Shown: positions 35,078 through 64,000 of the stretch, piece by piece
Position numbering within the stretch: the first letter of the stretch is position 1
Layout of the letters: every line of letters starts with the position of its first letter
NCBI GenBank assembly: GCA_002010075.1
Contig: MTMG01000013.1
Span: forward strand, 72,796-136,795
Direction: 5' to 3'
Source of the DNA: Methanomicrobia archaeon JdFR-19
GTDB taxonomy: Archaea > Halobacteriota > Methanosarcinia > DSM-18856 > Methermicoccaceae
DNA length: 64,000 bases
Made by a program: the position numbers and the translations under genes
The notes under the pieces: generated by a model
What the model saw: the letters and a program-made list of their open reading frames with translations, nothing else
What the model was told of the DNA's origin: nothing
The model's database searches: none

Positions 35078-35081
35078 TAGC

Positions 35082-39127: not shown

Positions 39128-39214
39128 CCTGAATGAGGTTGGAGGAGGGATAGAAAATGCTAAATCAGAAAAGTTGAGGGGAATAAAAAGAGAGGATATT
39201 GTGTTAGACTCGCA

Positions 39215-39493
39215 TCATCTTATCTCAAACCTTTTCCTATCAAGCAGTTCCTGTTTCTTTGCCTCGTTCCAGCCACTCACATCTTGGAGATATCCCGTTA
39301 TCCGAGAAATGGGCAGGACGTTGTGCGAACCACATTCCGGACAGTAGAACTCACCACATACCGGACAGACATGTATCCCAGAAATGGGTTTCATGCACGA
39401 ACCATGCTCGCGGGCATACTCCCTGACGGGGCAGTTGTCAGGCGTGTATTTAAACTCACTCTTGATAGCCTTCTCAATGACTTCTTGAAGCAT
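39215..39493 (-). CDS. Stand-alone NrdD-like C-terminal domain: zinc ribbon plus glycyl-radical motif
   Basis: CPVCGEFYCPECGSH ... SRITGYLQDVSGWNEAKKQELLDRKRF parallels the class III RNR C-terminus (CxxC...CxxC, RV(C/T)GY(L/S), WN.GK..E..DR) in only 92 aa. Confidence 0.6.
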   Translation of the reverse strand: MLQEVIEKAIKSEFKYTPDNCPVREYAREHGSCMKPISGIHVCPVCGEFYCPECGSHNVLPISRITGYLQDVSGWNEAKKQELLDRKRFEIR

Positions 39494-39534
39494 GAAAGTG
39501 AATTGACTCCAATTCTACTTAAATGTTAGGATGT

Positions 39535-40614
39535 TTAAATATTAAGAGGGTCGAATCTCATTTCCACCCCCTCATCGTATCCCCATGCTCTCATCTGTGG
39601 GATGAGGACATCTCTCTCGAACACTCTTTTGATTTGGCGTTGCATCGACATCAGAACGTTCAGTCTGTCTTTCTCTGAAACGTAGGAAGATGCGTAGGTT
39701 GAGCCTCTTGCCTTTCCGGTTGTAATCTCTGACTGGAGGAGAGCTATTGCGATGTCTCTTTCCAAGCTCTCCTTGAGTCCGAGAATGTCGGTTGCTCCTG
39801 TGGTTGGAGTCAAAGGCTTCACCTCGAATCCCACCCCCACAATGTCCTCGTTCTGTTCAAGCTTCTGCATCTCCTCTTTCACATCGTCCAGCACTTTCTT
39901 TATCTCCTCGAATCTTCCTTCGTGCAGAAGTGGTTCAAGAGCCTTCATATCGATGTGAAGCCTTCCCATTCCGTATCTTCTGACAGCTTTTGTGAATCCT
40001 TCGAGCAAATCGAGTTTGTACTTCACGATTCTGTCTATGGGGTCGAGGAGTGAGATACCATACAGACCAAGGGTAGTTCTTCCCATGATATCTGTGCATA
40101 CATTCCCCTCTGGAAAGAGGCGAAATAGTGCGAACTCGTCTCTGTTGAATACTGTGGGGACAGACTCCTCCTGAACAACCACTCTGTCCACCTTACCCTT
40201 CAGAACGTGTGTGGGAATCTCTTTCGGTCTCACTCCTTTGGGGAGGAGAGTGATGTACCTCATGGGGAGTGGAGTGAGTGAGGAAATAGTATCACCATCC
40301 CATTCGAGGTGGAGAACAACGGTTCCATCACGGGCAAGCAGTCTGGCAACTGTTGCAATCACGTGGTCGAGATTCACTCCCACAGCCCACTTTTCAAGCT
40401 CCTTCACACCACCACAGAACTCGAAGCCACTTGAGATTGTGAGACCCAGTTTCAGAAGTGAGGTTGCAACATAGGGGTCGATCTGGGAGAGCTGTTCGTA
40501 TCTGATGAAGCGGTTGGATGTGTCAAGGTAGAAGTTCCCCACTTTGTAGTCGTCCGGTGTGATTCTGGGTATTGCCGACAAAGAAGCCTGAATTCTTTTC
40601 TTTCTGAAGAACAT
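39535..40614 (-). CDS. Portal-like protein candidate (virus-like region)
   Basis: 359 aa. The evidence is weak: its size and its position at the head of a scaffold/capsid-like array. Confidence 0.35.
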   Translation of the reverse strand: MFFRKKRIQASLSAIPRITPDDYKVGNFYLDTSNRFIRYEQLSQIDPYVATSLLKLGLTISSGFEFCGGVKELEKWAVGVNLDHVIATVARLLARDGTVVLHLEWDGDTISSLTPLPMRYITLLPKGVRPKEIPTHVLKGKVDRVVVQEESVPTVFNRDEFALFRLFPEGNVCTDIMGRTTLGLYGISLLDPIDRIVKYKLDLLEGFTKAVRRYGMGRLHIDMKALEPLLHEGRFEEIKKVLDDVKEEMQKLEQNEDIVGVGFEVKPLTPTTGATDILGLKESLERDIAIALLQSEITTGKARGSTYASSYVSEKDRLNVLMSMQRQIKRVFERDVLIPQMRAWGYDEGVEMRFDPLNI

Positions 40615-40652: not shown

Positions 40653-41816
40653 TTATTTATATTTTCTCAGAACATCCTTCAACTCCCTCAGAAACTCTTC
40701 CACCGTTCTTTCAGAAACGTGGGGCATCATGACCATTCTTATTGCCTCACCCACAGTCGAGACATACCAGTTCCTTCTCATCAGCTCATTCTTCACATCC
40801 TCCGCCCTATCACATCTCACACACAGCACATTGCACACCGGCTCTATGACCGGCTCGAGTCCGAGCTCCTCACATCCCTCTTTCATGAGATGGGTTATAC
40901 GCATGCACTCCTTCACGATTTTCGTGTAACCATCCCATCCGAGATGTCTCATCACCGCATACGCACCCACAACAGAACCACCAGTTCTCGTTCCGGTGAG
41001 TGTGTATTGAGAGCGGTGGGTGAGGTAGGGGGTATCGACCGCCAGCCTATCCATCACGTTCTCTCTGAAAACAAGCACACCGCACGGAATGGTTGAGAAT
41101 CCCATCTTGTGTGGGTCTATCGAAACTGAACTGACACCCTTCACAAAACCCCAGTCTCTCCTTCCAAGAAATGGAAGGACAAATCCACCAAACGCAGCAT
41201 CCACATGCAGAAATATTCCTCTCTCCTCTGCAATCTTCCCCAACTCCTCGATTGGGTCAACCTGTCCGTACTCTGTTGTACATGCGATGCCAACTATTGC
41301 AAACGTGTTATCATCCACCAGACCCTCCACCTCTCCAACATCCACCTTCAAATCCTCATTGAGCGGAGCCTTCCTGACCTCAACACCCAAAAGGTCTGAA
41401 ATTTTATCAAAAGAGAAATGGGCACTCTCAGGAACCACAATATTTCCTTTTTCACCTTCGCTTCCTTTTTTATTTTCTTTCTTTGCAACCCTCATCGCCT
41501 GTATGTTGGATTCTGTTCCTCCAGTGGTTGCAAATCCCCATGTCTTCGAGTTGCCAGCAAGCTCCCCAACCCTCTTCACAACACACCCTTCTATCTATGA
41601 GGAAGCGGGAAACAGCCCCGGGTCTCCAAGGTTCGATTCCATGTAGAGGATGTGGGCTCTCACAGCAACCGGATGGGGTAAGGTGCACATCGAAGAAAGA
41701 ATTCTGGTGTAGGAGATGTCCCTCTCCTTCATCAGCGAAAGCACATACAACACGCTCTCATCTTTTTCGCCCTCTATGTTCCACACCTTCACACCTCCAA
41801 AAGCTCTGCTTCGCAC
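40653..41816 (-). CDS. mfnA: PLP-dependent L-tyrosine/L-aspartate decarboxylase (MfnA family), with an in-frame TAG at 41595..41597
   Basis: Track ORFs 41595..41816 (N-terminus ...SSMCTLPHP...NLGDPGLFPASS) and 40653..41579 (...TTGGTESNIQAM...SIDPHKMG with the PLP lysine) share a frame and are joined through TAG ATA GAA GGG TGT GTT GTG. Both halves align to MfnA. The N-terminal start is uncertain and overlaps the upstream gene. Confidence 0.8.
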
Positions 41817-42424
41817 CTCTCAAAATCAACAACAGCACCCATCCCCATGTAAAGGGGACCCGGATTGACAATCAGAGTTCCCGTGCGATGTTCCACTCCT
41901 CTTGCCTCGTGTATGTGTCCGCACAGAATCACATCCACCTTCCCCACCGCCCCCTATATCGCCTTCGAGCCAACGTGCTCTCCCCTCGCCACATCACACA
42001 CTCCATAGGGTGGTGCATGACTCACGAGACACGTTGTACGGCTCTCATCCCGAATCTTAGAGAGCAGTTCTTCCAGCATGTATCTGATTGAGTCCTCACT
42101 CATCTCGAACGGAGTCGAAAATGGAGTGGGATTCGAGCCACCGATTCCCATGAACAGCACGTCCCCCATCTCGACCACCCTCCTGTGCAGGGGGATTGCT
42201 CCCTCCTCCTCAAGTGCTTGGTGAATTTCTGGCGGGTCACAGTTCCCACCAACTCCAATCACTTTCCTGCCCTTCAGAATCTCCATCATGTGCTTCACAT
42301 GTGTGAGGGGACCGAAGTTCGTGATGTCTCCGCACATCACAACCACATCCACCCCCACCCTTTCAACCACTTCTCTCATTTTCTCGTATCTTCCATGTGC
42401 ATCAGACAAGACGAGTGCTCTCAT
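41789..42424 (-). CDS. Metallophosphoesterase (MJ0936/YfcE-like), with an in-frame TAG at 41954..41956
   Basis: Track ORF 41954..42424 (MRALVLSDAHGRYEKM...VVMCGDITNFG...GGNCD) stops at TAG. The same frame continues GAVGKVDVILCGHIHEARGVEHRTGTLIVNPGPLY... (the GHxH and NPGS motifs) to a TGA at about 41789. Confidence 0.75.
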
Positions 42425-48968: not shown

Positions 48969-49519
48969 ATGATGAGGCTAAAAAACAGAGCAGAGATGCT
49001 TAACAGATTGGCATCAGACCCGAAGAACAAGCCGGACGAAATCATAAGAAGGATGGGCTTGAAGGAGGGGCAGGTAATAGCAGATGTAGGCGCCGGAGGT
49101 GGTTATTTCTCAGTGAGATTTTCAGAGGTGGTGGGAGAGAAAGGCAGGGTTTATGCGGTCGATACGAATCCCAAGTTCTTGGAGCACATACAGATGATGG
49201 CAGGGAAGAACAACATCACCAATCTCATCACCGTCCTCGCAACCGAGGACAGATTCAGTCTGCCAGAAAAAGTGGATTTTGTGTTCATGCGCAATGTTAC
49301 ACACCACATCAAAAACAGAGTGGAGTATTTCAAGAGGTTGAGAGAGGTTCTGAAACCAAATGGAAGAGTTGTCATAATAGATTACGAGAAATCGTTATTC
49401 CGCAGAATTTTCGGGCATTATGTGCCTAAGAACACCATAATAATGGAGATGAGATAGGCGGGATACAGGTTGAATGAGGAGTTCGACATTCTACCAAAAC
49501 AGCACTTCACCGTCTACAC
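48969..49519 (+). CDS. Class I SAM-dependent methyltransferase, with an in-frame TAG at 49455..49457
   Basis: Motif I VIADVGAGGGYFS. After the TAG the frame continues AGYRLNEEFDILPKQHFTVYT to a TGA, which is the usual (e)aGF...v.....hf C-terminal strand of these methyltransferases. Confidence 0.75.
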
Positions 49520-49863
49520 TTGACATAGTTCTCTTTCTTACCGCACCTCAAACACTCTCTTTCCACATCCACCACATTAGAAGACGCGTATATGGTGTAT
49601 CTCTCCTTCCATTTGTGCAGTCCAAATTTGCATAGAATGCCCAACATCATGATAAACCATTATGATTAATGATATAAAAAAGAATTGGGGGTATCCCGAA
49701 GGACACCCAATCGTTTCACGCTTTCTTGATGAAGTTCTTGGCAAAGGTTCTCGCCTGATAGAGTGCAATCAAGCTCAGCACCCAAATCAGGATGAAAGCC
49801 ACGTAGTCAATGCCCGCAGCTCTCCACACACCTTCCAATCCAAAGCCCCACATTCATATCACC

Positions 49864-50187
49864 TCACAACATGCACACCTGCTGTGCGCGTTCTCTTCCG
49901 AAGTCCTCTATCTGGTACTTGTAGAGAACTGCGCCCTCTCCGAAGTAAGTCCCGTCATCCACTTTCTGCTCGACACTCGATGTGAGACCACCTGATGCGA
50001 GCTCTATCAGGAGCAGTTTAACCTGTGATTTCCAGTAGTCTCCACTGATTCCGTACTCTTTGCTTATGGTTTCCCAGAGCTCGTAGTCCCACATAGCACC
50101 TTTCTCATCGAGTAATTGAAGTACTCTGCATTTAATCGGCATTTCAGTTGGGTTTTTTGTTCTGGCAGCCATTTCACACCACCTCAC
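49864..50187 (-). CDS. Small winged-helix-like protein (PadR-like?)
   Basis: 107 aa. Weak resemblance to PadR-type wHTH. Confidence 0.35.
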   Translation of the reverse strand: MRWCEMAARTKNPTEMPIKCRVLQLLDEKGAMWDYELWETISKEYGISGDYWKSQVKLLLIELASGGLTSSVEQKVDDGTYFGEGAVLYKYQIEDFGRERAQQVCML

Positions 50188-51260
50188 ATCTCCCTCGTTG
50201 TTTCCTCAACGACAGCACCTTCCCAGTAGTACATTATGAACGTACCAATCACTGCGACTATGACACCCAAGATGAGCCACCAGGCTGGGACGCCACCGAG
50301 GAAGAGTATCACGAATATCACTGCGAGCGGTCCATAAAGGGCTGCGATTGCCTGTCCTCTGCCCACACCGATCAGTGGGAAGGACTTGTACCATGAAACA
50401 TAACAGAATGCGAATGTTATACCAGCTGCCACAAGCCAGACTTGGGCATCTGCATTAGCGGTCGCTGACAAGAGTGGATAGATATTCCATCCGAACAGTG
50501 CAGCTGTGAGTGGGCATATTATGATGATCCAGTAGAAGACCTCGCCCATGAAACGCACTGTTATCCCAATGTCTGGGTCTGAAACATCCAGCGCCCTAGC
50601 AGCGACTGCTCCCTCGATACCCCATCCGAGGAATGCCATTGCACCTCCGAGGTATCCGAGGAACAGCACTTCAGGAGCCGCCGGATTCTGCAGTTGCGCA
50701 ATCATGTCCAGCGGGTTGAATATCAGTATGCCACCGAGAATAATAAGGACTATACCGAGGTATGTTCTCGGAGAAATCCTCTCCTTATACCACAGTTTAG
50801 CAATAGTTGCACCAACAACAGGATACACAAGAGCTGCTGCTGCAGCAAAGGCACCACCGATAATACCCATTGCCATAAACGAACCAAATATAGCTATTGG
50901 ACCACCGCATATTGCTCCAAGCCAGAACCACTTCGAGATGTTTGTGAAGTTTCGCAGTGTCCTTATCAACTCACCAAACTTACCGAGCACACCAACCCAT
51001 ACCAGAAGGAAAATCAGAACCCACACAGCGTTGAACGTCGTTATTACGACAGCTGCAGCCAAGAACTCGCCCAGCGGGTCGGTTCCCGGAAAGAGTGGTG
51101 GAGCCCATTCTCCATATGGGGGGGCATACCATACGACTGTCCCTGGGATGTACCACAATCCCCAGAGAATTGCACACCATAATGCCCAAATAAAACCCCA
51201 TTTAACTTTTACTTTTTGTTCGGCTTTTATTGCTTCAGCCAAACTCGTTACAGCACCCAT
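50184..51260 (-). CDS. Polytopic membrane protein (DMT/EamA-like transporter candidate)
   Basis: 358 aa, about 10 TM helices, Trp/Gly-rich. Confidence 0.55.
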   Translation of the reverse strand: MGAVTSLAEAIKAEQKVKVKWGFIWALWCAILWGLWYIPGTVVWYAPPYGEWAPPLFPGTDPLGEFLAAAVVITTFNAVWVLIFLLVWVGVLGKFGELIRTLRNFTNISKWFWLGAICGGPIAIFGSFMAMGIIGGAFAAAAALVYPVVGATIAKLWYKERISPRTYLGIVLIILGGILIFNPLDMIAQLQNPAAPEVLFLGYLGGAMAFLGWGIEGAVAARALDVSDPDIGITVRFMGEVFYWIIIICPLTAALFGWNIYPLLSATANADAQVWLVAAGITFAFCYVSWYKSFPLIGVGRGQAIAALYGPLAVIFVILFLGGVPAWWLILGVIVAVIGTFIMYYWEGAVVEETTREM

Positions 51261-51312
51261 ATCATCACCTCATTACAAATTTTTGGGGAGAAAAAATGAA
51301 AAAAACTCCCCT

Positions 51313-51957
51313 TTACTCTGCACCTACAAGTTTCTTAGCAATTCTTACGGCGTCGAGAGCATTCTCGGCGTAAGCATCAGCACCAATCTTGTCAGCCCAT
51401 TCTTGGGTTATGGGAGCGCCTCCCACCATCACCTTGACCTTGTCCTTGATGCCAACCTTCTCAAGCTCCTCTACGACTGCACGCTGGTTGAGCATTGTTG
51501 TTGTCATGAGTGCGGATGCCCCTACGATGTCTGCGTTCAGTTCCTTTGCCTTGTTGGCGAACTCCACATTGGGGACATCCCTTCCGAGGTCATGAACATC
51601 GAACCCCGCAATGCTGAGCATGGTTGCGACGATGTCCTTACCGATCGTGTGAATGTCTCCCTCAACTGTTCCAATCAAGTACACTCCTATGGATTCTCCT
51701 GCCTTTGCTCCCTTCAGAACTGGCTCAACCACAGCAACAGCAGCCTTCATGGCTTCAGATGCTGCCATCACGTGAGGTAGGAAAACCTCGCCCTTGTCGA
51801 ACTTATCACCAATCTCACGCATAGCAGCGGTCATGCCCTCAATGAGTTCCACAGGGTCAACACCCGCATCGAGTGCTTCCTGTGCCGCCTTTACAGCCTC
51901 GTCTTTCTTGTAGTTTTTGATTGCATCCTGAACTTTCTGTATAAGCTCGCTTGACAT
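51313..51957 (-). CDS. mttC: Methylamine-specific corrinoid protein (B12-binding, MttC family)
   Basis: 214 aa with the cobalamin-binding DxHxxG motif (GDIHTIGKDIV) and the corrinoid-protein N-terminal helical cap. Confidence 0.85.
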   Translation of the reverse strand: MSSELIQKVQDAIKNYKKDEAVKAAQEALDAGVDPVELIEGMTAAMREIGDKFDKGEVFLPHVMAASEAMKAAVAVVEPVLKGAKAGESIGVYLIGTVEGDIHTIGKDIVATMLSIAGFDVHDLGRDVPNVEFANKAKELNADIVGASALMTTTMLNQRAVVEELEKVGIKDKVKVMVGGAPITQEWADKIGADAYAENALDAVRIAKKLVGAE

Positions 51958-51963
51958 TAAAAA

Positions 51964-53478
51964 TCACCTCCCTTCTAATGCCGCCTTATCGGCCCTCTTC
52001 ATAACCTCTTCCATGTCCTTCAGCACATCGCTGTCTATCGGAGCGACCTCATGCGTCTTGAGAATCTCATCGACCTTATCGCGTGCTGCCTGTGCAAGGT
52101 CCTTTCCGCCAAGGGACTGCCATGTCCCTCTCATGTTCCTGTCGATCAAGGTTGGGTTGGACTGAATGTTGATGAGGTCTCTTGTCTCATCCAGAGCCAA
52201 GAAGTCTCCGCCCGCTCCAACTGACTTGATGGAGTCTACAGCGAGTGTTGTCTCGTTCACTTCGATTCCCTCAACGACCATCCTTGCCATTCCAATGATA
52301 TCGTTGTCGATGACTATCTGCTCAGAGCTGACAGTCATACCAAGCTCGAGCATACCTGCTCCGTATATGCTGTTCGCACCTGCAAGTGCGGGTACGAGTG
52401 TTGTGATTGTCTTCTCATGACCTGCCTGTGCATCTGGGAGTTTGGAGTCGGTCTAAGTTCCAGCCACGTAGCTTGGCAAGTTGTAATACTGAGCCAGCTG
52501 TGCCACTGCTGCACTGATAAGTGCAAGCTCAGGCGAACCAACTGGTGCGGTTCCCTTTCTCAGGTCGAAAGCTGTTGTGGAGCTTCCATACCACACAGGA
52601 GCACCAGGGTTTGCAAGCTGGGACAGGACTATACCTGCCAAAACCTCAGCGTTGTGTGTCACGAGAGTGCCTGCAACATGCACCGGAGATGTCGCTCCTG
52701 CCATTGCCATGCTCAAAACGTTCACTGGCATCTCGTACTTTGCACCATATATTATGACCTTCACAGCGTTCTCGTGGAGTTGTAGTGGGCTTGTTGGACA
52801 GAGAAGCAACGAGAGTATTGGTCTCTTCCTTGCCAGCTCCTCATCTCCACCATAGAACGCCTTTACTACTTCCCAGTATGTGTCGATGCTGGTACCGACA
52901 GGGTCAATGTGCTGGAAGTGTTTGCTCGTACCCTTCAAGGATGCCATCAGTTCGTGTACGTCCTGCGCACCCTTGTCAGACCAGTCTCTTGCAGAGACCG
53001 TCAGGGAGAAGTAGTCAATGTTATCACACCAGTCTGTGACTATTGCGGTGTCGATGATGTCCTGCTCAACTGAGTCCCTGACAACCGGCTTGCCATCTTT
53101 GAATTCGAATACCTGTACACCGGTACCGAAGGTTGTCCAGTATACTTTGCCTCCTGCCTCCTGAATGAGGTCGTTCTCCTTGGTTCTGCCTGCCAGTAAG
53201 AATCTTGATGGGGCAGTCTGCAAAGCCTTCCTCACGACCCACTCAGGAATCTTCACCATCTGTGTCTCGTTGTCTACTTCACAGCCGTTTTCCTCGAACA
53301 CTTTTCTACCGAGTTCATCTGTGACGAGAACGCCTGTGTCTGTGAATACGTCCATGGTAGCTTGGTGTATCTCTCTTAATTCGCTCTTAGAGAAGAGTTT
53401 TAACCCAGCTCCATGAAGCTTCTCAACGCCTGCTTCTACATATTTTCTCATGTTTATCACGTAGGAAGTGTATGCCAT
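51964..53478 (-). CDS. mttB: Trimethylamine:corrinoid methyltransferase MttB, with in-frame TAG (pyrrolysine position) at 52453..52455
   Basis: Track ORFs 52453..53478 and 51964..52353 are in frame. The joined protein reads ...[55 protein letters not shown]... and is collinear with Methanosarcina MttB across about 500 aa. The TAG sits at the canonical Pyl site. Confidence 0.9.
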
Positions 53479-53630
53479 TACATCTAAATAAGTCTTACTA
53501 AAAAACCGAATAAATCAAAATAAATTGAATAAATTATAAAAAAATTTGAGTTTTGAACTGAAAATAGGACGCAGTCTTGTCACTTCATTTTCCACCATAC
53601 ATATATATTTCACAATGATAAATCAAAATC
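53479..53630. promoter_or_regulatory. AT-rich divergent promoter region upstream of mttBC (minus) and a membrane-protein gene (plus)
   Basis: About 150 nt of A/T tracts between divergent starts (aaataaattgaataaattataaaaaaattt). Confidence 0.3.
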
Positions 53631-54140
53631 ATGGATAGACGGATAAAAGTTGTCCTGCCCATAGCTCTCGCAGTCATTTTCGTGGTAATTCAGTCCCGCG
53701 AAATATATCCACTCATGGTAGTTTATTTCTTCCCACCGCTCGGGAAGGAGTCTGTCATCCCCACTGCGGTAGCCCTTGGATTCGGGCCACTTCACACCGC
53801 TCTCACCTTCACCACCATGGACGCCCTCACCTCCCTCTTCATCATATGGAACTTCGACCTTGTGTGCAGACTCAAGGTGATTGGAGACATCATAGCACGG
53901 GTGATGGTGAAGGCTATTAACATCCTCTCCCGCCGTCCATGGATATGGAGGTTTGCCTACATTGGAATATTCGTAGTTGTTTTTATCCCGTTTCAGGGAA
54001 GCGGTGCTGTGACCGCATCCGTACTGGGAAAACTGCTCGGTCTAAAACCCGAATACCTGTGGGTTGTCATAGTTCTAGCATCTTTTTTGAGCTCGATAAC
54101 GATTGCATTCTCCACAAGAATCGCCATACACCTTCTTTAA
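53631..54140 (+). CDS. Small polytopic membrane protein, unknown function
   Basis: 169 aa with about 4-5 TM helices. Confidence 0.5.
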   Translation: MDRRIKVVLPIALAVIFVVIQSREIYPLMVVYFFPPLGKESVIPTAVALGFGPLHTALTFTTMDALTSLFIIWNFDLVCRLKVIGDIIARVMVKAINILSRRPWIWRFAYIGIFVVVFIPFQGSGAVTASVLGKLLGLKPEYLWVVIVLASFLSSITIAFSTRIAIHLL

Positions 54141-56401
54141 GGAGGTGTTTCCAGCCACGGTTTGTAATCCACATTCCCGACAGCCCTTGATGCCCGTGGA
54201 GATGGACCCTTCGGCGAGCCCCACCAGTTGTATTCCGCATTCACTTTCTGTGGTGTTATTCCCCACACTCCAACGCTCGTGTTTCCGAAGTCGTTGTAGT
54301 GGAGTTCACACCCATGCCTCTTGAATATGAGGGCTCCTGAGAATCCTTCGTAGCGGTTATGGACCACGTATGCGAACGGAGTACCAACATCCCCGATTAC
54401 GACTGTCCCGAACTTTGTGGACTGGATGAAGTTGTTGGATATTTCGGTCTGTGCGTTCCTCCATACGGTTATTCCGAGTTTTGTGTCCAGAGAGTTGTTT
54501 TGTATGTGGCAATTCGTGAGTCTCTCTTCTGTGAGACCCGCAATCACAATCCCACTGTTCGCAGATATTTCATTGTCCCTTATTGAGTTGTTGAAGGCTC
54601 TCGATTCTGGGACAGACTGCACCACCACACCCATCTTTGCATCCACCCTGTTTCCAACCACATTGTTCTCGACTCCTGTCACCACCACACCTATATCACC
54701 CGATATCGTGTTCCCCACAACGATATTGTGGTCTGGGAGGTTGTAGAAACCGGGAGGCTCAACAGCACCACTCTTGTTTGTGAAGTATGGGCGTGTTATT
54801 CCGAGTTCGTACATGAGTACAAGCTGTTCTTTCAAGTCCTTTTTCAGTCCCTTAACCTTGATCTTCTTCATCTTCAAGTTCAGCAACTTCACATTTGACC
54901 AGAAGGTTGTGTTCGTGACAACCACACCGAACTTTGCAGATATGGAGTTATTCTGGATGATGGAAGAGGTTGTGTTGTATGCTACGATGCCATACAGACC
55001 TTGGAGGGTGTTGTTTGTGATGCGGGTCGAATCCGAAAAGGCGAGCAAGAGCCCCTCACTACCGGTGTTGTTCTCAAATAGTCCATGGTCATCGAAGCTC
55101 ACCTGATAGGAATATATTCTGCACGAGCTGGCTATGTTGTCCCTCACGACTATGCCACTGCTAACTCTTGTCCATATAGTGAAATTGTTCTCGTATCCGG
55201 TGTTGTTCTCGATGAAGACGTTGTTTAGGTAGGCACCATATATGCCAGAGTGTGTGTCGTTGAACACAGTGTTGTGTCTTACGAACGAATTCGAGACAGT
55301 GTCCATGTGTATCCCGTACGGGCATGAGTGGATGGTGTTGTGGGTGAGGGTCAGGTTGGTGGAATGGACTTCCGCAATTATTCCGTGTTTTTCACACGAT
55401 TGTATGGTGGTGTTCGAGACGGTGGAGTCGTTTACCGTGTAGAGCAGTACACCATACTTCCCTCCATCTATTGTTGAGTCCAAGAGGCTGAGGTATGATG
55501 AGTCTCTTGCGTATACAGGGATTGTTGTTGAGGATGAGGTGAGATTGAATACACGGGAGTGTGAAGAATACTGGACACACACACCGAACTCGCAATCAGT
55601 GGTCGAGATGTTTGAAATCTGCGAGTTCTCGGACAGATACACATAAACACCCTAAGAGCAGTTGGTTGCAGAGATGGATTCAGCTCTCACACCATCCGAA
55701 TCCAGCAGATAAAGTCCTATGTTCAGACCCTCGAACGAGATGTTCGAAAGAGTGGATGAAGAGTTGCGCAGTATCACACCACTCTGCTCTCCTGTGAGGA
55801 GTGCATCCTCGATTTCCCCATTCACGTTGTACAGATAGATGGGAGATGTTTTTCCATATACGGTGGTGTTGTGCATCGAGAAAAAGCCGTTATCCGTGGC
55901 GAACACATCACTTTGAAGTAAGCAGTCCTTTACCCACACCCGAGAGGATATGGGTCTGATCGAGTATCTGGAGGTGGATATTGTGGTGTTGGATACATTC
56001 ACCTCAGAGTTCATTATGACCATGCCATCGGTGGAGTTGATGATGTTGCACCCTTCTATGCTCACGTTGGTGCGTAACGGGTCTGAGTAGTATCCAACGA
56101 GTATTGCGGTTCCGTCTGTATCAACGGTGAGGTTGGCAAGTGTGATGTTCGATGCTTTTATCCAGATGTAGTCTTCAAGTGTGCAACCGAGTGTGCCACC
56201 TATGATGGAGACTTCCTTTCCAATGTTGAGGGTTTCGTTGTATGTTCCGTTCACAACTATCGTGTCCCCATCACTCGCATTTGTGAGCGCCTGAGATAGG
56301 GTGGGATAGTCCTCAGGAACATGGATTACACTTGCATTTGCTCCCGCGGTTGTTATGAATATGAACAACACGATTAGAGGCAATTTCATACTCAATTTCA
56401 T
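54137..56401 (-). CDS. Secreted right-handed parallel beta-helix repeat protein (NosD/pectate-lyase-like), with an in-frame TAG at 55652..55654
   Basis: Track ORFs 55652..56401 (signal peptide MKLSMKLPLIVLFIFITTAGANA plus beta-helix repeats) and 54137..55642 share a frame. They are joined via TAG GGT GTT TAT GTG TAT. The NxS/T-rich repeats continue across the junction. Confidence 0.7.
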
Positions 56402-56437
56402 ACATACACACTCTCCAAACTAATATTTAAATCAAGC

Positions 56438-56854
56438 TCACCATTTCACACTCTCGAGAATCACAGCAGGACAAATCCTATTCACTCCATCCATTCTCGC
56501 TATTTTTTTGTGGATTTCAGACAATTCGTCGAGCGAGAAGGCAACAACCTAACTCATGATTGTGTGGTCTCCTGATGTCAGCATCACAATCTTCACCTCT
56601 TCCATTTCCCTCAGCTTTCTGATCACATCCCAGAGATGTTCAGGACCGACATCTATGCCCGTGAGGGAGGCAAACAGATTTTTGTAGTTCAGCATTGCAT
56701 TGTATCCGAGTATCACACCCTCCTTTTCCAGTTTTGTTATCCTCTTCCTGACCGCAGTCTCACTCAGTCCAAGCATCTTCGCTATCTTCGTCTTGGGGGT
56801 TCTTGCATCTCTCAGCAACATCGAAATGATTTTTCTGTCTCTTTCATCCATCAT
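56438..56854 (-). CDS. lrp: Lrp/AsnC-family transcriptional regulator, with an in-frame TAG at 56549..56551
   Basis: N-terminal HTH (KIISMLLRDARTPKTKIAKMLGLSETAVRKRITKLEKEGVI). After the TAG, the RAM domain continues VVAFSLDELSEIHKKIARMDGVNRICPAVILESVKW to a TGA. The TAG aligns with the conserved Lys of the GDYDLLLKVVA segment. Confidence 0.8.
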
Positions 56855-56951
56855 TATAACCCTCTTTATTCAACTATATATATAGTCTGGTTCGATTTTC
56901 GAACAAAAAATATTATAAATTGTTATTCTAAATTTCGTATGGTGATAAAAA

Positions 56952-57617
56952 ATGTGTGAAAGAATGGAAGAAATGGCTGGGGAGAGGTTTCCCCTGATTG
57001 GGGAGACATTTCCATCAATGGAAGTGCAAACAACCCATGGTGTGATGAATCTGCCAGACGACTACAAAGGAAAATGGCTCGTATTTTTCAGTCATCCTGC
57101 TGATTTTACACCCGTATGCACGACTGAGTTCGTTGCGTTTCAGAAGAGATACGACAAATTCAGGGAACTGAACTGTGAGTTGATAGGGCTGAGCATTGAC
57201 CAGGTGTTCTCTCACATAAAATGGGTAGAGTGGATAAATGAGAAATTGGGGATTGAGATCGAGTTTCCAGTGATAGCGGATGACACAGGTATTGTGTCCA
57301 AAAAGCTGGGCCTCATACATCCGGGCAAGGGAACGAACACTGTGAGGGCGGTGTTCATAGTTGACCCTCAGGGTGTGATAAGAGCGATTCTTTACTATCC
57401 GCAAGAGCTTGGAAGGAACATGGACGAGATTTTGAGGATGGTGAGAGGTCTGCAGATTGTTGATGGGGAAGGAGTTGCAATGCCTGCAAACTGGCCCGAG
57501 AATGAGCTGGTGGGCGACAGTGTAATCATACCACCCGCGAAGACAGTGGAGGATGCGAAGAGGAGATTGGAAGAATACGAGAACTACGACTGGTGGTTCT
57601 GTTACAGGAAGTTGTGA
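56952..57617 (+). CDS. prx: Peroxiredoxin (AhpC/TSA family)
   Basis: Peroxidatic cysteine motif FTPVCTTE. 221 aa. Confidence 0.85.
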
Positions 57618-57648
57618 TATGAGGTTGTGAGAGAGGGAAAAGGGAGGT

Positions 57649-58086
57649 GTGAGAATGACTGAGTTGAATGAGATGTACAGGTGTGAGGTGTGCGGGAACA
57701 TCTTGGAGGTTGTGCATGCTGGGAAATGTGTGCCTGTGTGCTGTGAACAACCCATGAAACTGCTTGAGCCAAAGACAGAGGATGCGGGGAAGGAGAAGCA
57801 TGTTCCGGTTGTGGAGTATGGGAAGAAGTTGGTCGTCAAGGTTGGGAGTGTTCCGCACCCGATGGAAGAGAACCATTACATTGAATGGATAGAGGTGATT
57901 ACAGACGATGCGGTTTACAGAAAGCACCTCAAACCAGGTGATGAGCCAAAGGCTGAGTTCGAGATTCCGGCTGTTAAGAAGGTGAAAGGACCGAGATGCT
58001 GTCCCATGTCGCCCGCAGTCCGCAGGGTGCCAGATGTGAAGGCGGTGAGGGAATACTGTAATGTTCATGGGTTGTGGAGGGCATGA
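57649..58086 (+). CDS. dfx: Desulfoferrodoxin-type superoxide reductase
   Basis: N-terminal desulforedoxin CEVCGN...C..C, centre II EKHVP, C-terminal YCNVHGLW. Confidence 0.8.
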
Positions 58087-59267
58087 AGCCAGAGCCGGTT
58101 GAGATAGCGAAGGGCATATACTGGGTTGGGGCTGTGGACTGGGAGGAGAGAGATTTCCATGGCTTCAGAATCGAAAGAGGTTCGAGCTATAATGCCTATC
58201 TCGTGGTGGATGAGAAGATAACGCTCGTGGATACCGTGAAGCAGAGGTTCTTCCACGAGATGATTGAGAGGGTTTCTCAGGTGGTTGAGCCATCTGAAAT
58301 AGATTACATCGTATCGAACCATGTTGAGACAGACCACTCCGGCGCACTTGCAGATGTAAAGGAACTGACAGATGCAACTGTGATATGTACAGAGAAAGGA
58401 AAGAAGGGACTGTGCAAGCACTTTGACTGTTCAGAGTGGGAGATGAAGGTGGTGAAGACCGGGGACGAACTCTCCATAGGCAGGAGAACTCTCATGTTCG
58501 TCGAGACCCCAATGCTTCACTGGCCAGATAATATGGTGACGTATGTGAAGGAGGACAAAATACTTATGTCGAATGATGCGTTTGGACAGCATTTTGCGAG
58601 TGTGGAGAGGTATGATGAAGAGGTTGGTGTGGACGAGGCGGTAAGGTGGGCGAAGCTGTATTATGCAAACATACTGATGCCGTTTGGGGAGTTAGTCAAG
58701 AGGAAACTGGAGGAGCTTTCCACCATCGAAATCGAAATGATAGCTCCGAGCCATGGGGTGATATGGAAGAACCCGCAGAGGATACTGGAAGCTTATTCGA
58801 AGTGGGCGAGCTTCGTGAGCGAGAGGAAATTGGTCGTGGTGTACGATACGATGTGGGAGAGTACATCCCGAATAGCGAAGGCGATTGCAGAGGGTGCAGG
58901 CTCGGAGGGTGTTGATGTGAGAGTGTTCCGTGTGAGAAACGATGACATCAGCGACATCATGGCTGAGATACTGGATGCGGGTGGTGTTGCTATCGGCTCA
59001 TCAACGATGCACAACACCTTCCTTCCTTCGGTTTCATCCTTCCTTACCTCATTGCAGGGACTGAGACCCAAGGGGAAATTGGGTGTTGCCTTTGGTTCTT
59101 ATGGATGGAGTGGGGGGGCGGTGAAACAAATCACAGAGGTGCTTGAGAAACTCAGGTTCGATGTGCTTCCACCACTCCAAATAAGGTACAGACCCACGGA
59201 TGAGGAACTGAGGAAAGCGTTCGACCTCGGTGTTAATATGGCAGAAAAGATTAAGGAGAGAGTATGA
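58074..59267 (+). CDS. fprA: Flavodiiron protein (FprA; F420H2/rubredoxin:O2 or NO oxidoreductase)
   Basis: Metallo-beta-lactamase-like diiron domain (HVETDH) plus C-terminal flavodoxin domain. 397 aa. Confidence 0.85.
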
Positions 59268-59842
59268 TAGTTGGCATATGCGGAAGTCCGAGAAAAAAGG
59301 CGACTGAGTATGTTCTGACAAAGGCACTTGAGATGATTGAGGAAAGAGGGTTTGAGACCCACCTCTACACAGTAAGGGGAAAGAACATAGGTTTCTGTCA
59401 GCATTGTGATTACTGTTTGAAGAACAAGGAGTGCAGAATAAAGGACGATATGTATGAACTTTATGAGAAATTGAGAGAGGCTAATGGGATTGTGATGGCG
59501 ACTCCAGTTTACAACGGCGGAGTGAGTGGGCAGATAAAAGCAGTAATGGACAGGTGCAGGGCGCTGGTTGCATCAGACTACAACTTCTTCCGTGGGAAGG
59601 TAGGGATGGCGATAGCTGTTGGAGGGGACAGAATAGGCGGGCAAGAACTCGCCCTCCAGCAGATAATCACATTCTACATCCTGAACGGAATCGTGCCGGT
59701 GAGTGGTGGCTCCTTTGGTGCGAACCTCGGTGCAACGTTCTGGTCGAAAGACACGCTGGAGGGCGTGGAAGGGGATGAAGAAGGGTTCAGAACACTCAGA
59801 AAGACTGTAAGGAAGTTTGCCGAATATTTATCAGAGGAATGA
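59264..59842 (+). CDS. isf: Iron-sulfur flavoprotein / NADPH-dependent FMN reductase family (Isf-like)
   Basis: 192 aa. Flavodoxin-like fold with a compact Cys motif (CQHCDYCLKNKEC). Confidence 0.7.
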   Translation: MIVGICGSPRKKATEYVLTKALEMIEERGFETHLYTVRGKNIGFCQHCDYCLKNKECRIKDDMYELYEKLREANGIVMATPVYNGGVSGQIKAVMDRCRALVASDYNFFRGKVGMAIAVGGDRIGGQELALQQIITFYILNGIVPVSGGSFGANLGATFWSKDTLEGVEGDEEGFRTLRKTVRKFAEYLSEE

Positions 59843-60393
59843 TTATGAAGAGTGTTGCGTGGGGAATCACAGGAAGCGGAGACAGGATTGTGGAGACGTA
59901 CGAGGTGATGAGTGGGATAAAGAAGGAATACGAAGATGTTGAGGTCAGGGTTTATCTGAGCAGGGCGGGGGAGCAGGTGGTGAAGTACTATAGACTTACG
60001 GACAAGCTGAAGAACGATTTCGACAGAGTGTATGTGGAAATAAATGCAAACTCACCTTTCCTCGCAGGGCAGTTGCAGATCGGCAGGTTTGAGTTCCTTC
60101 TGATAGCTCCCGCAACCTCCAACACGGTTGCAAAGATTTCGATGGGGGTGGCTGACTCTCTCCTCTCCAACTCAGCAATCATGGCCATGAAGGCTTTTGT
60201 CCCGGTTTATCTCATGCCATCTGACATAGTTGAGGGGATTGTGGAGACCATACTACCCAGTGGAAAAAAGATGAAGCTGAGAATCAGGAGAGAGGATGTT
60301 GAGCATGTGAAGAGGCTTTCACAGATGGACGGAATGTTCATACTCGAAAAGCCTGAGGACATCTGGGGAGTGTTTGAAAAGCACTTCAGATGA
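59839..60393 (+). CDS. afpA: Archaeal flavoprotein AfpA-like (HFCD/PPC-decarboxylase-fold flavoprotein)
   Basis: 184 aa. Translationally coupled to the Isf-like gene, as in described AfpA-partner pairs. Confidence 0.6.
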   Translation: MIMKSVAWGITGSGDRIVETYEVMSGIKKEYEDVEVRVYLSRAGEQVVKYYRLTDKLKNDFDRVYVEINANSPFLAGQLQIGRFEFLLIAPATSNTVAKISMGVADSLLSNSAIMAMKAFVPVYLMPSDIVEGIVETILPSGKKMKLRIRREDVEHVKRLSQMDGMFILEKPEDIWGVFEKHFR

Positions 60394-60440
60394 CAGATGA
60401 GTCCAAGCCTCAAAACCGCCCATTCTCCACAAAAACTTCC

Positions 60441-61619
60441 TCATGACCCCTCTATTTCGCATTCATACTCGTAGTTGAAGAGATTCTCCTTCACAACCTC
60501 CCCGTCTGGCACAACAACCTCTGGCCAGATTCTCACTCCAGAATGTACAACAACTCCGTTCTTGATCACAGTCCTTGGCCCAATCACACAACCGCTCTCG
60601 AGTGTGCAGTCGTTTCCGATTGTCGTGTCTGAATCGACTATCGAACCGCTTACGGTGGTACCACACCCTATGCACACTCTATCGTACAAGTACGAGGAAA
60701 GTATCTTCGAGTTGTCCCTTATCACACATCCCGAACCTATCGATGTGTAGGGTCCTATCAGCACATTATCACCGATGGTCGTGTTCTCACCAATCACTAT
60801 TGGACCCACGAGCGAGGAGTTCATGCCTATCGAGATGTTCCCTCCTATCGATAGCTTGCCCCACAGCTTCGAACTCTTGGTGTTCAGTGTCCCGGTTATT
60901 CTGGTCTCGGTGAGGTTTTCGAGCATCCATTTCGATGCTTCTCTGTATGCCTCTGGACTCCCAACATCACTCCAGTGTCCACTCATCAGATATCCCTTTA
61001 TGATGTATCCTTTCTCCATCAGTGAGGGGAAGAGATTGTATGCGAAGTCGTACTTTCCCTCTGGTATGTAATCGAATATCATGGGGTCACACACATACAT
61101 ACCAGTGCTTGCGAGGTTCGAGAAAATCTCACCAACACTTGGTTTCTCCTTGAATCTGAGTATGTTTCCGTTCACATCGACATCTGCGATTCCGAAGCCA
61201 GAGGGGTCATCTATGCATATCAATCCAATGCTGACAGGTGAGTCATGGTGGAGATGGAAACGGTAGAACCTTCTCAAATCCACATCTGTAACATGGTCAC
61301 CTCCAACCACAAGAAACGGCTCACCATCCAACAGCTTCTGTGCGTTCTTCACACTTCCAGCGGTCCCAAGCGGTTCATCCTCATACACGTAATGAATGCT
61401 CACTCCGTAAAGAGAGCCATCTCCCAGAACCTCCTCGATGTGCTCTCCCATGTATCCAAGCGTTACCACGATGTCTGTGAAGCCGTTATTCGATAAATGG
61501 TCGACAAGTCTCGCAACCGATGGCTTGTTCAGAATCGGAATGGCAGGTTTGGGTCTATCAAATGTGAGAGGTCTCAACCTTGTTCCTCTTCCACCACACA
61601 TAATACAAGCCTTCAACAT
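60441..61619 (-). CDS. Sugar-1-phosphate nucleotidyltransferase with C-terminal left-handed beta-helix domain (GlmU/RmlA-like)
   Basis: GGRGTRLRPLT nucleotide-binding motif and C-terminal hexapeptide repeats. The likely start is the Met of MLKACIMCGG. Confidence 0.8.
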   Translation of the reverse strand: MLKACIMCGGRGTRLRPLTFDRPKPAIPILNKPSVARLVDHLSNNGFTDIVVTLGYMGEHIEEVLGDGSLYGVSIHYVYEDEPLGTAGSVKNAQKLLDGEPFLVVGGDHVTDVDLRRFYRFHLHHDSPVSIGLICIDDPSGFGIADVDVNGNILRFKEKPSVGEIFSNLASTGMYVCDPMIFDYIPEGKYDFAYNLFPSLMEKGYIIKGYLMSGHWSDVGSPEAYREASKWMLENLTETRITGTLNTKSSKLWGKLSIGGNISIGMNSSLVGPIVIGENTTIGDNVLIGPYTSIGSGCVIRDNSKILSSYLYDRVCIGCGTTVSGSIVDSDTTIGNDCTLESGCVIGPRTVIKNGVVVHSGVRIWPEVVVPDGEVVKENLFNYEYECEIEGS

Positions 61620-61620
61620 A

Positions 61621-62436
61621 TCACCCCAACATATCAATAATTTGGTGATGGATGAAGGGGTTCGATGCTATCATATTCACCTTTGCCTTCACATCGAAAA
61701 CGCCCTTATGCTCTCGCCCCCCCTCATCTGTCACAACTCCCCCCGCCTCTTTCACGATGAGATAAGCACCACCGATATCCATCATCCTCAGGTATCCCCT
61801 GACATCAACAAATCCGTCAAGAATGCCAGCTCCCACATAGCACATTTCAAGCGAAGAACAGCCAAAAATCCTCAACCTCTTTGCCCTCTTTGCAAGGTTT
61901 GATATTTCGAGAGGTCTCTGAGAAAATCCATAGAGGCTGAGGTCAGATAAATCGAGGTCTGCAACCGTTGAGACATTTATGGGTATCTCGGTGCCTTTCC
62001 TTACAGCATATGCTCCTCCTCCCATGAACGCATAGTACTCGATGTCATGTGCAAGGTCATACACATAACCGAACCAGATATCGGAGAGTATTCTGTCCCC
62101 TATACCGATGGATACCGTGTAGAAAGGAATTCCTTCGATTGCGTTGGTTGTTCCATCGACTGGGTCGAGCAGAACCGTGAACTCGGGAGAGTCTCCGAAC
62201 CTCCTCTCCCCAGCCTCCTCACTTATCACCCTTATCGGGAAGTCCCATGTCTGAAACTCTTCGAATGCTACCCTCTCTGCGACATCATCTATCTTGTGGG
62301 TGGGCGTACCATCCGCACCCATGTACAGCTTCCTTGCTCCTTCCTCCTCTCCAACCAAAGGTTCTATCACATCTTTGACAGCATGTGCAACATTTCTGCA
62401 CAGTCTGAGTGCTGTTTTCTCACCGACATCAGACAT
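61621..62436 (-). CDS. suhB: Inositol monophosphatase / fructose-1,6-bisphosphatase family (archaeal SuhB-like)
   Basis: IMPase motifs DPVDGT and WDxAAG-like region. 271 aa. Confidence 0.8.
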   Translation of the reverse strand: MSDVGEKTALRLCRNVAHAVKDVIEPLVGEEEGARKLYMGADGTPTHKIDDVAERVAFEEFQTWDFPIRVISEEAGERRFGDSPEFTVLLDPVDGTTNAIEGIPFYTVSIGIGDRILSDIWFGYVYDLAHDIEYYAFMGGGAYAVRKGTEIPINVSTVADLDLSDLSLYGFSQRPLEISNLAKRAKRLRIFGCSSLEMCYVGAGILDGFVDVRGYLRMMDIGGAYLIVKEAGGVVTDEGGREHKGVFDVKAKVNMIASNPFIHHQIIDMLG

Positions 62437-62869
62437 CGAACACCCCTTCTGGCACCTCTATGAGCCTCTTTGCCTCAATATTTGATATATCTGTTTTCCC
62501 TTCAACCACCACAGTGCCGTTCGACTTGAGCGAGTCTATAACCACTCGTGGTCTTATTCTCACATCTCCTTTGCATAAAACCTCTCTCGTAAGCACACAT
62601 CCATCATGCACTTGCAGTTGCTCCTCGACCTGAACACCGCCCACCACTTTACAGTACGCACATATGATTGCCTTTTTTGCGAAGACCTGACCGCCCACAC
62701 TCGAACCCTTCCCGAGAATGAGCTCCCCTCTTACCACGAGGTCATTCCAGAACCTCACACCCGGACCTGTAATGAGATTTCCATTCACCCTCACGTTCCT
62801 GTCAAGGTATCCACTCGTTAGGATGTAGGTATGGGTTGGTTTGTGGAACCTCAGTTTAAATTCACCCAT
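62429..62869 (-). CDS. Bactofilin-like (DUF583) beta-helical protein
   Basis: 146 aa with repeated G.V.G-V hexapeptide-like rungs. Confidence 0.45.
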   Translation of the reverse strand: MGEFKLRFHKPTHTYILTSGYLDRNVRVNGNLITGPGVRFWNDLVVRGELILGKGSSVGGQVFAKKAIICAYCKVVGGVQVEEQLQVHDGCVLTREVLCKGDVRIRPRVVIDSLKSNGTVVVEGKTDISNIEAKRLIEVPEGVFDV

Positions 62870-62873
62870 CTGA

Positions 62874-63725
62874 TCACGCCTTTTTGCTTGAGCCGAACAG
62901 CCTTATCTTGGTCTTCACAACCTCTTTCATGGCATCCCTTGCGGGCCCGAGAATCTTCCTCGGGTCGTACACATCTGACTTACACACAACCTCTCTAACC
63001 GCATCTCTGAATGCCAGCCTCAATTCAGTGTCTATGTTTATCTTGTTTATACCGAGTCTTGTTGCCCTCCTTATATCATCATCGGGGATTCCAGATGCAC
63101 CGTGGAGTACGAGCGGAATATGGACAACCTCATCTATTTCCTTCAACCGGTCAAAATCGAGTTTTGGCTCTCCTTTGTATATGCCGTGTGCATTTCCGAT
63201 CGAAACAGCAAGGAAATCACAGTTTGTCTCCTCTACAAACTTCTGAGCCTCCTTGGGGTCTGTGAAGAAAGCTTCTCTTTCTGTGACCGATATCTCGTCC
63301 TCCACACCCACCAGCCTTCCGAGTTCCGCCTCAACAGGAACTCCCACTGTGTGTGCAACCTCGACAACCTTCTTCGTGAGGGCAACGTTCTCCTCAAACG
63401 GTAAAAACGACCCGTCTATCATCACTGACGTGAAACCAGCCCTTATGCACTTCATCACTGTTTCGAAATCAGGTCCATGGTCAAGATGGAGACTCATGGG
63501 AATGTCAACTTTGCTTGCTGCCGTATGCACAAGCTTCGCAATGTAGTCGATTCCAGCATACTTAATTGCACCCTTTGTTGCTGCCACAATAACGGGAGCA
63601 TCCTCCTCAACCGCCCCCTCCACAATAGCCTGCATGATTTCCATGTTGTTCATGTTAAAAGCCCCGACCGCATACCCCTCTTGATTTGCTTTTTCAAGCA
63701 GTTCTTTGTTGCTTACAAGCACCAT
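62874..63725 (-). CDS. fba: Class II fructose-bisphosphate aldolase
   Basis: 283 aa with class II FBA/TBPA motifs (LHLDHG, HGASG). Confidence 0.85.
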   Translation of the reverse strand: MVLVSNKELLEKANQEGYAVGAFNMNNMEIMQAIVEGAVEEDAPVIVAATKGAIKYAGIDYIAKLVHTAASKVDIPMSLHLDHGPDFETVMKCIRAGFTSVMIDGSFLPFEENVALTKKVVEVAHTVGVPVEAELGRLVGVEDEISVTEREAFFTDPKEAQKFVEETNCDFLAVSIGNAHGIYKGEPKLDFDRLKEIDEVVHIPLVLHGASGIPDDDIRRATRLGINKINIDTELRLAFRDAVREVVCKSDVYDPRKILGPARDAMKEVVKTKIRLFGSSKKA

Positions 63726-63741
63726 AAAAGCACCTCCTTAA

Positions 63742-63816
63742 CGGACCCGGCGCGATTCGAACGCGCGACCCCCGGGTTAGAAGCCCGGTGCTATATCCTG
63801 GCTAAGCCACGGGCCC
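63742..63816 (-). tRNA. tRNA-Arg (anticodon UCU)
   Basis: Cloverleaf with acceptor GGGCCCG/CGGGUCC, anticodon loop CUUCUAA and T-arm GCGCGUUCGAAUCGCGC. Confidence 0.85.
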
Positions 63817-63819
63817 ACA

Positions 63820-63892
63820 GGCCGGGACCGAGATTCGAACTCGGCTCTTGGCCTCCACAGGGCCAAAGGATAACCACTACCCTATCCCGGCC
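63820..63892 (-). tRNA. tRNA-His (anticodon GUG) with genomically encoded G-1
   Basis: Acceptor GCCGGGA/UCCCGGC plus an extra 5' G opposite discriminator C73. Anticodon loop CUGUGGA. It lies 3 nt from tRNA-Arg. Confidence 0.85.
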
Positions 63893-64000
63893 ACCTCAAT
63901 TTTATACAGTATGCATATCTATATTTAACCTTTGTTTTATTAGGTATTTGTGGTGTTTTTTAACACCTAGAAAGATTTAAAATTAAAAAGATTCAAGACC

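Follow-up and report, generated by a model that had tools for sequence, protein, structure and literature searches.

In the 64,000-nucleotide (nt) stretch of the Methanomicrobia archaeon JdFR-19 genome analyzed here (GenBank GCA_002010075.1, contig MTMG01000013.1, positions 72,796 to 136,795; hereafter, the window), the gene for an Lrp/AsnC-family regulator carries an in-frame TAG codon that is very probably translated as pyrrolysine (Pyl). The explanation that we favor, and consider likely, is that this organism of the JDFR-19 genus uses Genetic Code 34 and that the Lrp TAG derives from GAG, has been kept, and is read through with Pyl at position 102 to give the full protein of 138 amino acids (aa), with no local RNA signal. 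In this scenario, TAG would no longer be a stop codon in the source lineage, a Methermicoccaceae archaeon, and would be decoded by a Pyl-tRNA(CUA). In the common ancestor of the window organism and the metagenome-assembled genome (MAG) B74_G9, one G-to-T substitution would have converted a conserved GAG (Glu) into TAG, and this codon would have been retained since then. Read-through would then produce the full-length Lrp with Pyl in a RAM-domain beta-strand, and a local RNA signal would not be needed at this codon. We infer both the insertion of Pyl at the Lrp TAG and its efficient read-through from the comparisons described below.

56438-56854, minus strand: Lrp/AsnC-family regulator, 138 aa with the TAG read through and 101 aa if the TAG terminates.
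56549-56551, minus strand: the in-frame TAG, which is Lrp codon 102 and belongs to RAM-domain strand segment 99-105; ancestral codon GAG (Glu).

The plus-strand letters at 56549-56551 are CTA, which on the minus strand gives a TAG codon in frame with the open reading frame (ORF) 56438-56854(-); this ORF starts at 56854 and, once the TAG is read through, terminates at a TGA (56438-56440). The translation around the codon is ...LTSGDHTIMS-stop-VVAFSLDELSEIHKKIARMDGVNRICPAVILESVKW-stop, so that the flanking peptides read ...LTSGDHTIMS-TAG-VVAFSLDELSEIH... When the TAG was entered as X for a Pfam scan, the HTH_AsnC-type domain (PF13404) covered residues 2-43 and AsnC_trans_reg (PF01037, RAM) covered residues 66-134 (model positions 2-72 of 73), crossing residue 102. 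The complete HTH and RAM architecture of Lrp/AsnC regulators is thus found only with the TAG read through. Database orthologs of 138 aa align with the protein from end to end, the best being a Methermicoccus shengliensis Lrp/AsnC with 70% identity over residues 1-138. Consequently, the sequence itself, the Pfam spans, and the orthologs all confirm the in-frame TAG and its GDHTIMS-TAG context, as reported in the initial annotation. An AlphaFold (AF2) model built from 35 aligned sequences, with a mean predicted local distance difference test (pLDDT) score of 88.9, contains the expected helices and strands and places residue 102 within the strand segment 99-105, with a helix (108-119) and a strand (124-132) downstream. 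According to this model, a product stopping at the TAG would be left without one third of the RAM domain. The trypsin peptide across residue 102, deduced from the sequence, is IVMLTSGDHTIMS-O-VVAFSLDELSEIHK (O = Pyl).

The residue that the TAG replaces depends on which relatives are compared. The initial annotation had taken it to be the Lys of a conserved RAM segment, and this is true of the classical family consensus, since Lys occupies the same column in Escherichia coli Lrp (2GQQ) and in Pyrococcus horikoshii FL11 (2CYY, PH1519). However, it does not hold for the orthologs of the window gene. In an alignment with 48 homologs, the column holds Glu in 41 of 46 sequences, Lys in 4 (one with 54% identity and three with ~35%), Ile in 1, and Gly in 1, and one more sequence ends at the TAG codon. 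The nearest full-length ortholog, which reads SGDHTIMTEIVA at this segment, is also the positional one, divergent to peroxiredoxin and desulfoferrodoxin genes as in the window; the DNA at the site is ATG ACC GAG ATA in the M. shengliensis-type ortholog versus ATG AGT TAG GTT in the window. In other genome loci, Archaeoglobaceae have Glu in this column (GAA or GAG), Crenarchaeota have Ile, Val, or Thr, Firmicutes have Thr or Leu, and Rhizobium has Lys. LrpA of Pyrococcus furiosus (1I1G), FL11, E. coli Lrp, and the window Lrp share an N-terminal AsnC-type HTH and a C-terminal RAM domain, and LrpA is the best match among solved structures (128.6 bits, residues 1-137 against 1-141). Along this series, the Lys of the "DYLLK" motif of E. 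coli Lrp and FL11 becomes Val in LrpA, Glu in the orthologs of the window gene, and TAG in the window; PH0140, another solved structure, has Gln. Lys is therefore confined to distant, paralog-level relatives and to a minority of the 46 sequences. Judging from these alignments, the ancestral residue was Glu, encoded by GAG, one transversion away from TAG.

The Lrp TAG is common to three independent assemblies from different samples, namely the window, MAG B74_G9 ("Methanosarcinales archaeon," GCA_003661015.1; contig QMVI01000028.1), and a 681-nt ENA contig (k141_503542), all of which retain the frame and its TGA stop. The contigs of B74_G9, whose names point to Guaymas, are collinear with the window at ~93% DNA identity; furthermore, a JGI metagenome contig (3300037583, Ga0314848_000307) matches window positions 50440-64000 with 100% identity. 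Between the window and B74_G9, 16 of the 417 positions of the Lrp gene differ, with 12 synonymous and 4 nonsynonymous changes.

The Lrp gene is not an isolated case. We curated 64 genes, covering ~92% of the window and representing a 64-kb sample of the genome. Their terminators are TGA in 50 genes and TAA in 14, and TAG ends none of them. Exactly one internal TAG occurs in each of nine genes (14%), which bears out the count of the initial annotation; a Pfam model or close homologs cross every one of these codons, all the read-through products end at the usual C terminus of their family, and reading through creates no large out-of-frame overlaps. Besides Lrp, the genes with an internal TAG are as follows.

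2907-4079, plus strand: 3-dehydroquinate synthase II (DHQS); TAG at 3576-3578, aa 224; Pfam DHQS at 21-390, model 2-344 of 344.
14525-15913, plus strand: GatA amidotransferase subunit; TAG at 14669-14671, aa 49; Pfam Amidase at 18-452, model 1-444 of 445.
25221-26090, plus strand: DUF89/ARMT1-like phosphatase; TAG at 25437-25439, aa 73; Pfam ARMT1-like at 5-283.
40653-41816, minus strand: MfnA tyrosine/aspartate decarboxylase; TAG at 41595-41597, aa 74; Pfam Pyridoxal_deC.
41789-42424, minus strand: metallophosphoesterase; TAG at 41954-41956, aa 157; Pfam Metallophos_2 at 1-192.
48969-49523, plus strand: class I S-adenosylmethionine (SAM) methyltransferase; TAG at 49455-49457, aa 163; Pfam Methyltransf_31/11/25.
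51964-53478, minus strand: MttB trimethylamine methyltransferase; TAG at 52453-52455, aa 342, the catalytic Pyl position; Pfam MTTB at 26-496.
54137-56401, minus strand: secreted beta-helix (NosD/PbH1) protein, 754 aa; TAG at 55652-55654, aa 250; Pfam Beta_helix/NosD matches cross the TAG.

The situation differs in contigs of the M. shengliensis type, where 7 of the 37 called genes end in TAG, several of them with another stop a few codons further on. This Pyl-encoding relative still terminates at TAG, unlike the window organism. Because of this contrast between 7 of 37 and 0 of 64 genes, the loss of TAG as a stop codon postdates the split from Methermicoccus. The codons themselves are of different ages. 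The DUF89 TAG is also present in a contig of the metagenome that yielded the B74_G9 contigs, and the beta-helix TAG is common to B74_G9, where the peptide reads NCS-TAG-GIYVY and the frame is open to the same end, even though the public annotation cuts the gene at the TAG into ORFs of 245 and 501 aa. From their distribution, three of the window TAGs postdate the split from B74_G9, and at least three (Lrp, DUF89, and beta-helix) predate it. In the beta-helix gene, whose TAG is kept in both genomes, the 504 codons that follow it have a ratio of nonsynonymous to synonymous substitution rates (dN/dS) of 0.11 against B74_G9, and in the DUF89 gene dN/dS is 0.095 on both sides of the shared TAG. Therefore, the sequence 3' of the shared TAGs is translated and under purifying selection.

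The identity of the inserted residue is best approached through the methylamine genes. In an alignment with the solved M. barkeri MttB (7XCL; 696 bits), the TAG of mttB falls on the Pyl residue, which is X in YVAGSXSDAK, and it is followed by a PYLIS element, the structure known from methylamine methyltransferase mRNAs. Together with its two neighbors, mttB forms a complete methylamine cassette.

52356-52455, minus strand: PYLIS_3 RNA element beginning at the mttB TAG; Rfam RF02510, 89.9 bits (gathering score 38), E value 3.5e-17.
50184-51260 and 51313-51957, minus strand: EamA-like transporter (Pfam EamA) and MttC corrinoid protein (Pfam B12-binding).

The sequence after the mttB TAG folds with a z-score of -2.58. 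Downstream of the Lrp TAG, by contrast, there is no Rfam match, and 133 of 200 shuffles fold as stably as the native sequence (z-score of +0.53), so a PYLIS-like stem-loop is absent there; this is consistent with context-independent decoding. Of the seven remaining non-mttB TAGs, six are likewise without significant downstream structure (z-scores of -0.91 to +1.65). The exception is GatA, where the 100 nt at 14669-14771(+) fold with -27.2 kcal/mol (z-score of -2.38; 4 of 200 shuffles as good), without an Rfam match. This fold is comparable to the PYLIS region of mttB, although the GatA TAG is of recent origin, B74_G9 having CAG, and the fold may merely reflect conserved coding sequence. A PYLIS-like structure as a general requirement for TAG decoding was rejected, as only mttB and GatA stand out among the nine sites. 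Thus, the assignment to Pyl is based on the catalytic TAG of mttB with its PYLIS element, on published reports of Pyl machinery in B74_G9 and JDFR-19, and on the read-through demanded by GatA, DHQS, and MfnA, which are housekeeping genes expected to be essential and hence to need efficient read-through.

It is important to consider whether the residues aligned with the TAG codons can themselves reveal what is inserted. The initial annotation had treated the Lys of the Lrp column as fitting a lysine derivative, and had proposed that columns dominated by residues incompatible with Lys or Pyl would indicate another amino acid. Lys, or a residue similar to it, does occur in some alignments: besides E. 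coli Lrp, FL11, the Rhizobium homolog, and the 4 of 46 database homologs of Lrp, distant metallophosphoesterase homologs often have R or K at the TAG column (R, K, L, or N among the matches listed). The closest relatives give a different picture. Where they are informative, at seven sites, they carry Gln three times (DHQS, GatA, and the methyltransferase), Glu three times (Lrp, MfnA, and DUF89), and Ala once (metallophosphoesterase, GCG in M. shengliensis), but never Lys. The DHQS site is CAG (Gln) in the two nearest relatives (91% and 89% identity), within a family column that, in 150 sequences, is P in 49, E in 16, Q in 11, D in 11, N in 10, and K in only 4. In B74_G9, the GatA site and the methyltransferase site are both CAG (Gln), the latter gene sharing its C-terminal tail with the window. 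The initial annotation had given this methyltransferase column as E, which does appear among the distant states in the matches listed (E, Q, D, R, or G) but is not the residue of the nearest relative. Similarly, of the "E/K/R" given for DUF89, Glu was found in all three informative, more distant homologs (a Methermicoccaceae MAG, AF1104, and PH1575; structures 2FFJ and 2G8L), and neither K nor R was seen among these three. The "L/K" given for MfnA was not supported at all: the site is Glu in M. shengliensis (GAA) and in a Methermicoccaceae MAG, and the column in the 118 homologs among the matches listed is S in 46, E in 40, G in 9, A in 7, D in 7, T in 5, R in 3, and Q in 1, with neither K nor L. 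For the metallophosphoesterase, a PDB search returned only marginal matches to MJ0936, whose column alignment is unreliable, and in the beta-helix protein, the neighboring repeats have F, Y, S, or H (by eye) at the position equivalent to the TAG.

At the codon level, four ancestors can be read from the closest relatives, and each differs from TAG by one step (CAG three times and GAG once). Under the codon usage of the window and equal mutation rates for all eight codons one step away, the expected one-step ancestors are E (31%), K (20%), Y (20%), L (8.5%), Q (7%), W (7%), and S (7%); given the ~20% expected for AAG, finding no Lys among six one-step ancestors has a p of ~0.27, and Lys is neither enriched nor significantly avoided. 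The excess of CAG would fit a C-to-T transition bias. The column residues would therefore show which codons lie one mutation away and which positions are tolerant, not the chemistry of the inserted residue; since young TAG codons show their mutational ancestors (CAG and GAG), the alignment context cannot identify what is inserted. For this reason, it is very unlikely that the Lys-like column is positive evidence for a lysine derivative, and a GAG ancestor and the Glu majority in Lrp speak against it. The same reasoning makes the reverse argument unsound: the columns are dominated by Glu and Gln, yet for such a young sense codon this does not point to another residue. Codes in which TAG specifies Gln are known in some eukaryotes and phages, and a suppressor tRNA inserting Gln or Glu would agree with the residues of the nearest relatives. 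Nevertheless, this E/Q pattern is precisely what a single-base origin from CAG or GAG predicts, mttB needs Pyl and its TAG, accompanied by a PYLIS element, coincides exactly with the Pyl position, no tRNA(CUA) lies within the window, and pairs of PylRS and tRNAPyl from sister genomes have been cloned and assayed in E. coli for TAG decoding (bioRxiv 10.1101/2024.09.30.615893). We consider reassignment to Gln or Glu highly improbable. Pyl as the inserted residue, the end point reached in the initial annotation, is thus very likely right, but the inserted residue is better settled by the mttB TAG with PYLIS and by the published Pyl machinery of B74_G9 and JDFR-19 than by the columns through which it was argued.

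Several observations weigh against Pyl insertion and efficient read-through at the Lrp codon. The 64-kb window contains no pylT, pylS, or pylBCD and no tRNA with a CUA anticodon, its five tRNAs being those for Pro, Val, Phe, Arg, and His, and the Pyl machinery of this organism therefore had to be deduced from its relatives and from mttB. In addition, the trimethylamine (TMA) cassette (EamA-like transporter, MttC, and MttB with its TAG and PYLIS) is absent from the collinear B74_G9 contig QMVI01000028.1; in a blastn comparison, the alignment jumps from 53596 to 49828, skipping the cassette at 49829-53595, between flanks with ~90-93% identity. The only window gene that needs Pyl is mttB, and its cassette has been inserted or deleted between the window organism and B74_G9. 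The 36 codons after the Lrp TAG contain 2 synonymous and 2 conservative nonsynonymous changes (V103I and D122N), too few to show selection on the Lrp tail alone, and selection was therefore judged from the beta-helix and DUF89 genes. Finally, in Methanosarcina acetivorans, UAG serves as a stop and also encodes Pyl (PMC12626013), and some termination at the Lrp codon is possible. Such ambiguous decoding would give, besides the full-length Lrp, a 101-aa HTH product without the helix 108-119 and the strand 124-132, in a ratio that could report the supply of Pyl-tRNA. The retention of the TAG across three related assemblies and the distance of 3 kb between Lrp and mttB are compatible with this alternative, and the authors of the M. 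acetivorans study propose a Pyl-containing repressor as a sensor and describe TAG as enriched in regulatory genes (PMC12626013). However, read-through must be efficient and constitutive when GatA, DHQS, and MfnA carry internal TAGs, none of the 64 window genes uses TAG as a terminator, and the 101-aa product, whose RAM domain would be incomplete in the structural model, shows no sign of function. Ambiguous decoding is, in our opinion, unlikely. The last alternative, that Lrp is a pseudogene or its TAG a sequencing or assembly error, would agree with the automatic annotation under code 11, which gives Lrp as a fragment of 101-104 aa. This alternative can be regarded as negligible in probability in view of the three independent assemblies from different samples, the 12 synonymous changes among the 16 differences from B74_G9, the eight further genes with the same feature (several expected to be essential), and the dN/dS of ~0.1 downstream of the TAG in other genes.

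The surroundings of the Lrp gene suggest what it regulates. Across an intergenic region at 56855-56951, it is divergent to an oxygen-detoxification cluster (56952-60393) that encodes a 1-Cys peroxiredoxin, a desulfoferrodoxin, an FprA-type flavodiiron protein, a flavin mononucleotide (FMN) reductase, and a flavoprotein. In M. shengliensis-type contigs, Lrp is likewise paired with genes for peroxiredoxin and desulfoferrodoxin (plus rubrerythrin), and this conservation suggests that the cluster is the likely target of the regulator. For Methanosarcina, a regulator that contains Pyl and senses read-through has been hypothesized but not identified (PMC12626013). The Lrp could be viewed in this light, with a TAG that is not neutral, an oligomerizing full-length form made when Pyl is available, and an HTH-only fragment of 101 aa made when it is not. 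The TAG is kept in three close relatives in place of an otherwise conserved Glu, which is the one observation behind this idea, and we hold it to be very doubtful. If it were true, such a sensor would tie expression of the neighboring oxidative-stress genes, or of the methylamine cassette close by, to the Pyl status of the cell.

The favored reading, Pyl insertion at a retained TAG derived from GAG, places the window within a phenomenon that is already known. Kivenson et al. described Genetic Code 34, in which every TAG codon specifies Pyl, and they report 13% of TAG-containing genes and 191 predicted Pyl proteins for JDFR-19 (Methermicoccaceae), as well as the cloning of the PylRS/pylT pair of B74G9 as a homolog from the JDFR19 genus, pairs of this kind being tried for TAG decoding in E. 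coli (bioRxiv 10.1101/2024.09.30.615893). The window resembles this description in its share of TAG genes (14% versus the reported 13%), in the location of internal TAGs within conserved domains of ordinary genes, in the lack of TAG terminators, in having a methylamine methyltransferase with a TAG at the Pyl site, and in its ~93% DNA identity to B74_G9. The Pyl sites of Code 34 are mostly lineage-specific singletons, and three of the nine TAGs of the window are absent from B74_G9. No difference in kind was found, the Pyl genes lying outside the window. What the present analysis adds is the ancestry of the sites at the codon level, as the accessible text of Kivenson et al. includes no codon-ancestry (substitution) analysis of Pyl sites (bioRxiv 10.1101/2024.09.30.615893). 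The recoding is that of the JDFR-19 genus, and the Lrp codon is one more singleton Pyl position within it. A further precedent is the tRNA-His guanylyltransferase (Thg1) of M. acetivorans, whose Pyl is cited as having arisen by neutral evolution. As in the window, a TAG outside the methyltransferases stands where relatives have an ordinary residue, and Pyl has no dedicated insertion element and no apparent catalytic role. The two cases differ in that the window holds eight non-methyltransferase TAG genes per 64 kb and has lost TAG as a terminator, whereas TAG is ambiguous in M. acetivorans (PMC12626013).

Other features of the window deserve mention. The base after each of the nine in-frame TAGs is always a purine (G in six and A in three), which may be due to chance or to a codon-context preference. 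A class I lysyl-tRNA synthetase (PF01921, tRNA-synt_1f; 23567-25231, plus strand) lies directly upstream of the DUF89 gene, with a slight overlap. The N terminus of the beta-helix protein is hydrophobic and signal-peptide-like, by eye from the translation. Adjoining MfnA, where M. shengliensis has genes for a prenyltransferase and MCH, the region 30585-40614 has the appearance of an integrated head-tail virus-like gene cluster, and no in-frame TAG occurs in its genes. These include an XM1_gp53-like minor capsid gene (31105-31572), an HK97/encapsulin-like major capsid gene (31586-32416), a phage tail tube gene (37552-38436), a Mu-like portal gene (39535-40614), and many ORFs without a Pfam match.

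These results carry a methodological lesson, namely that in lineages with a recent change of a stop codon into a sense codon, inferring the inserted residue from alignment columns is misleading and would here point to Glu or Gln. The gain is a modest one, consisting of the codon-level ancestry and relative dating of nine sites, and its value as a discovery is small since the genus-wide recoding of TAG to Pyl has been published. With respect to the biology of the JDFR-19 genus, methylamine use is not uniform, as the locus in B74_G9 has no mttB cassette. Furthermore, the different ages of the TAG codons show that Pyl codons are still accumulating in the JDFR-19 lineage.

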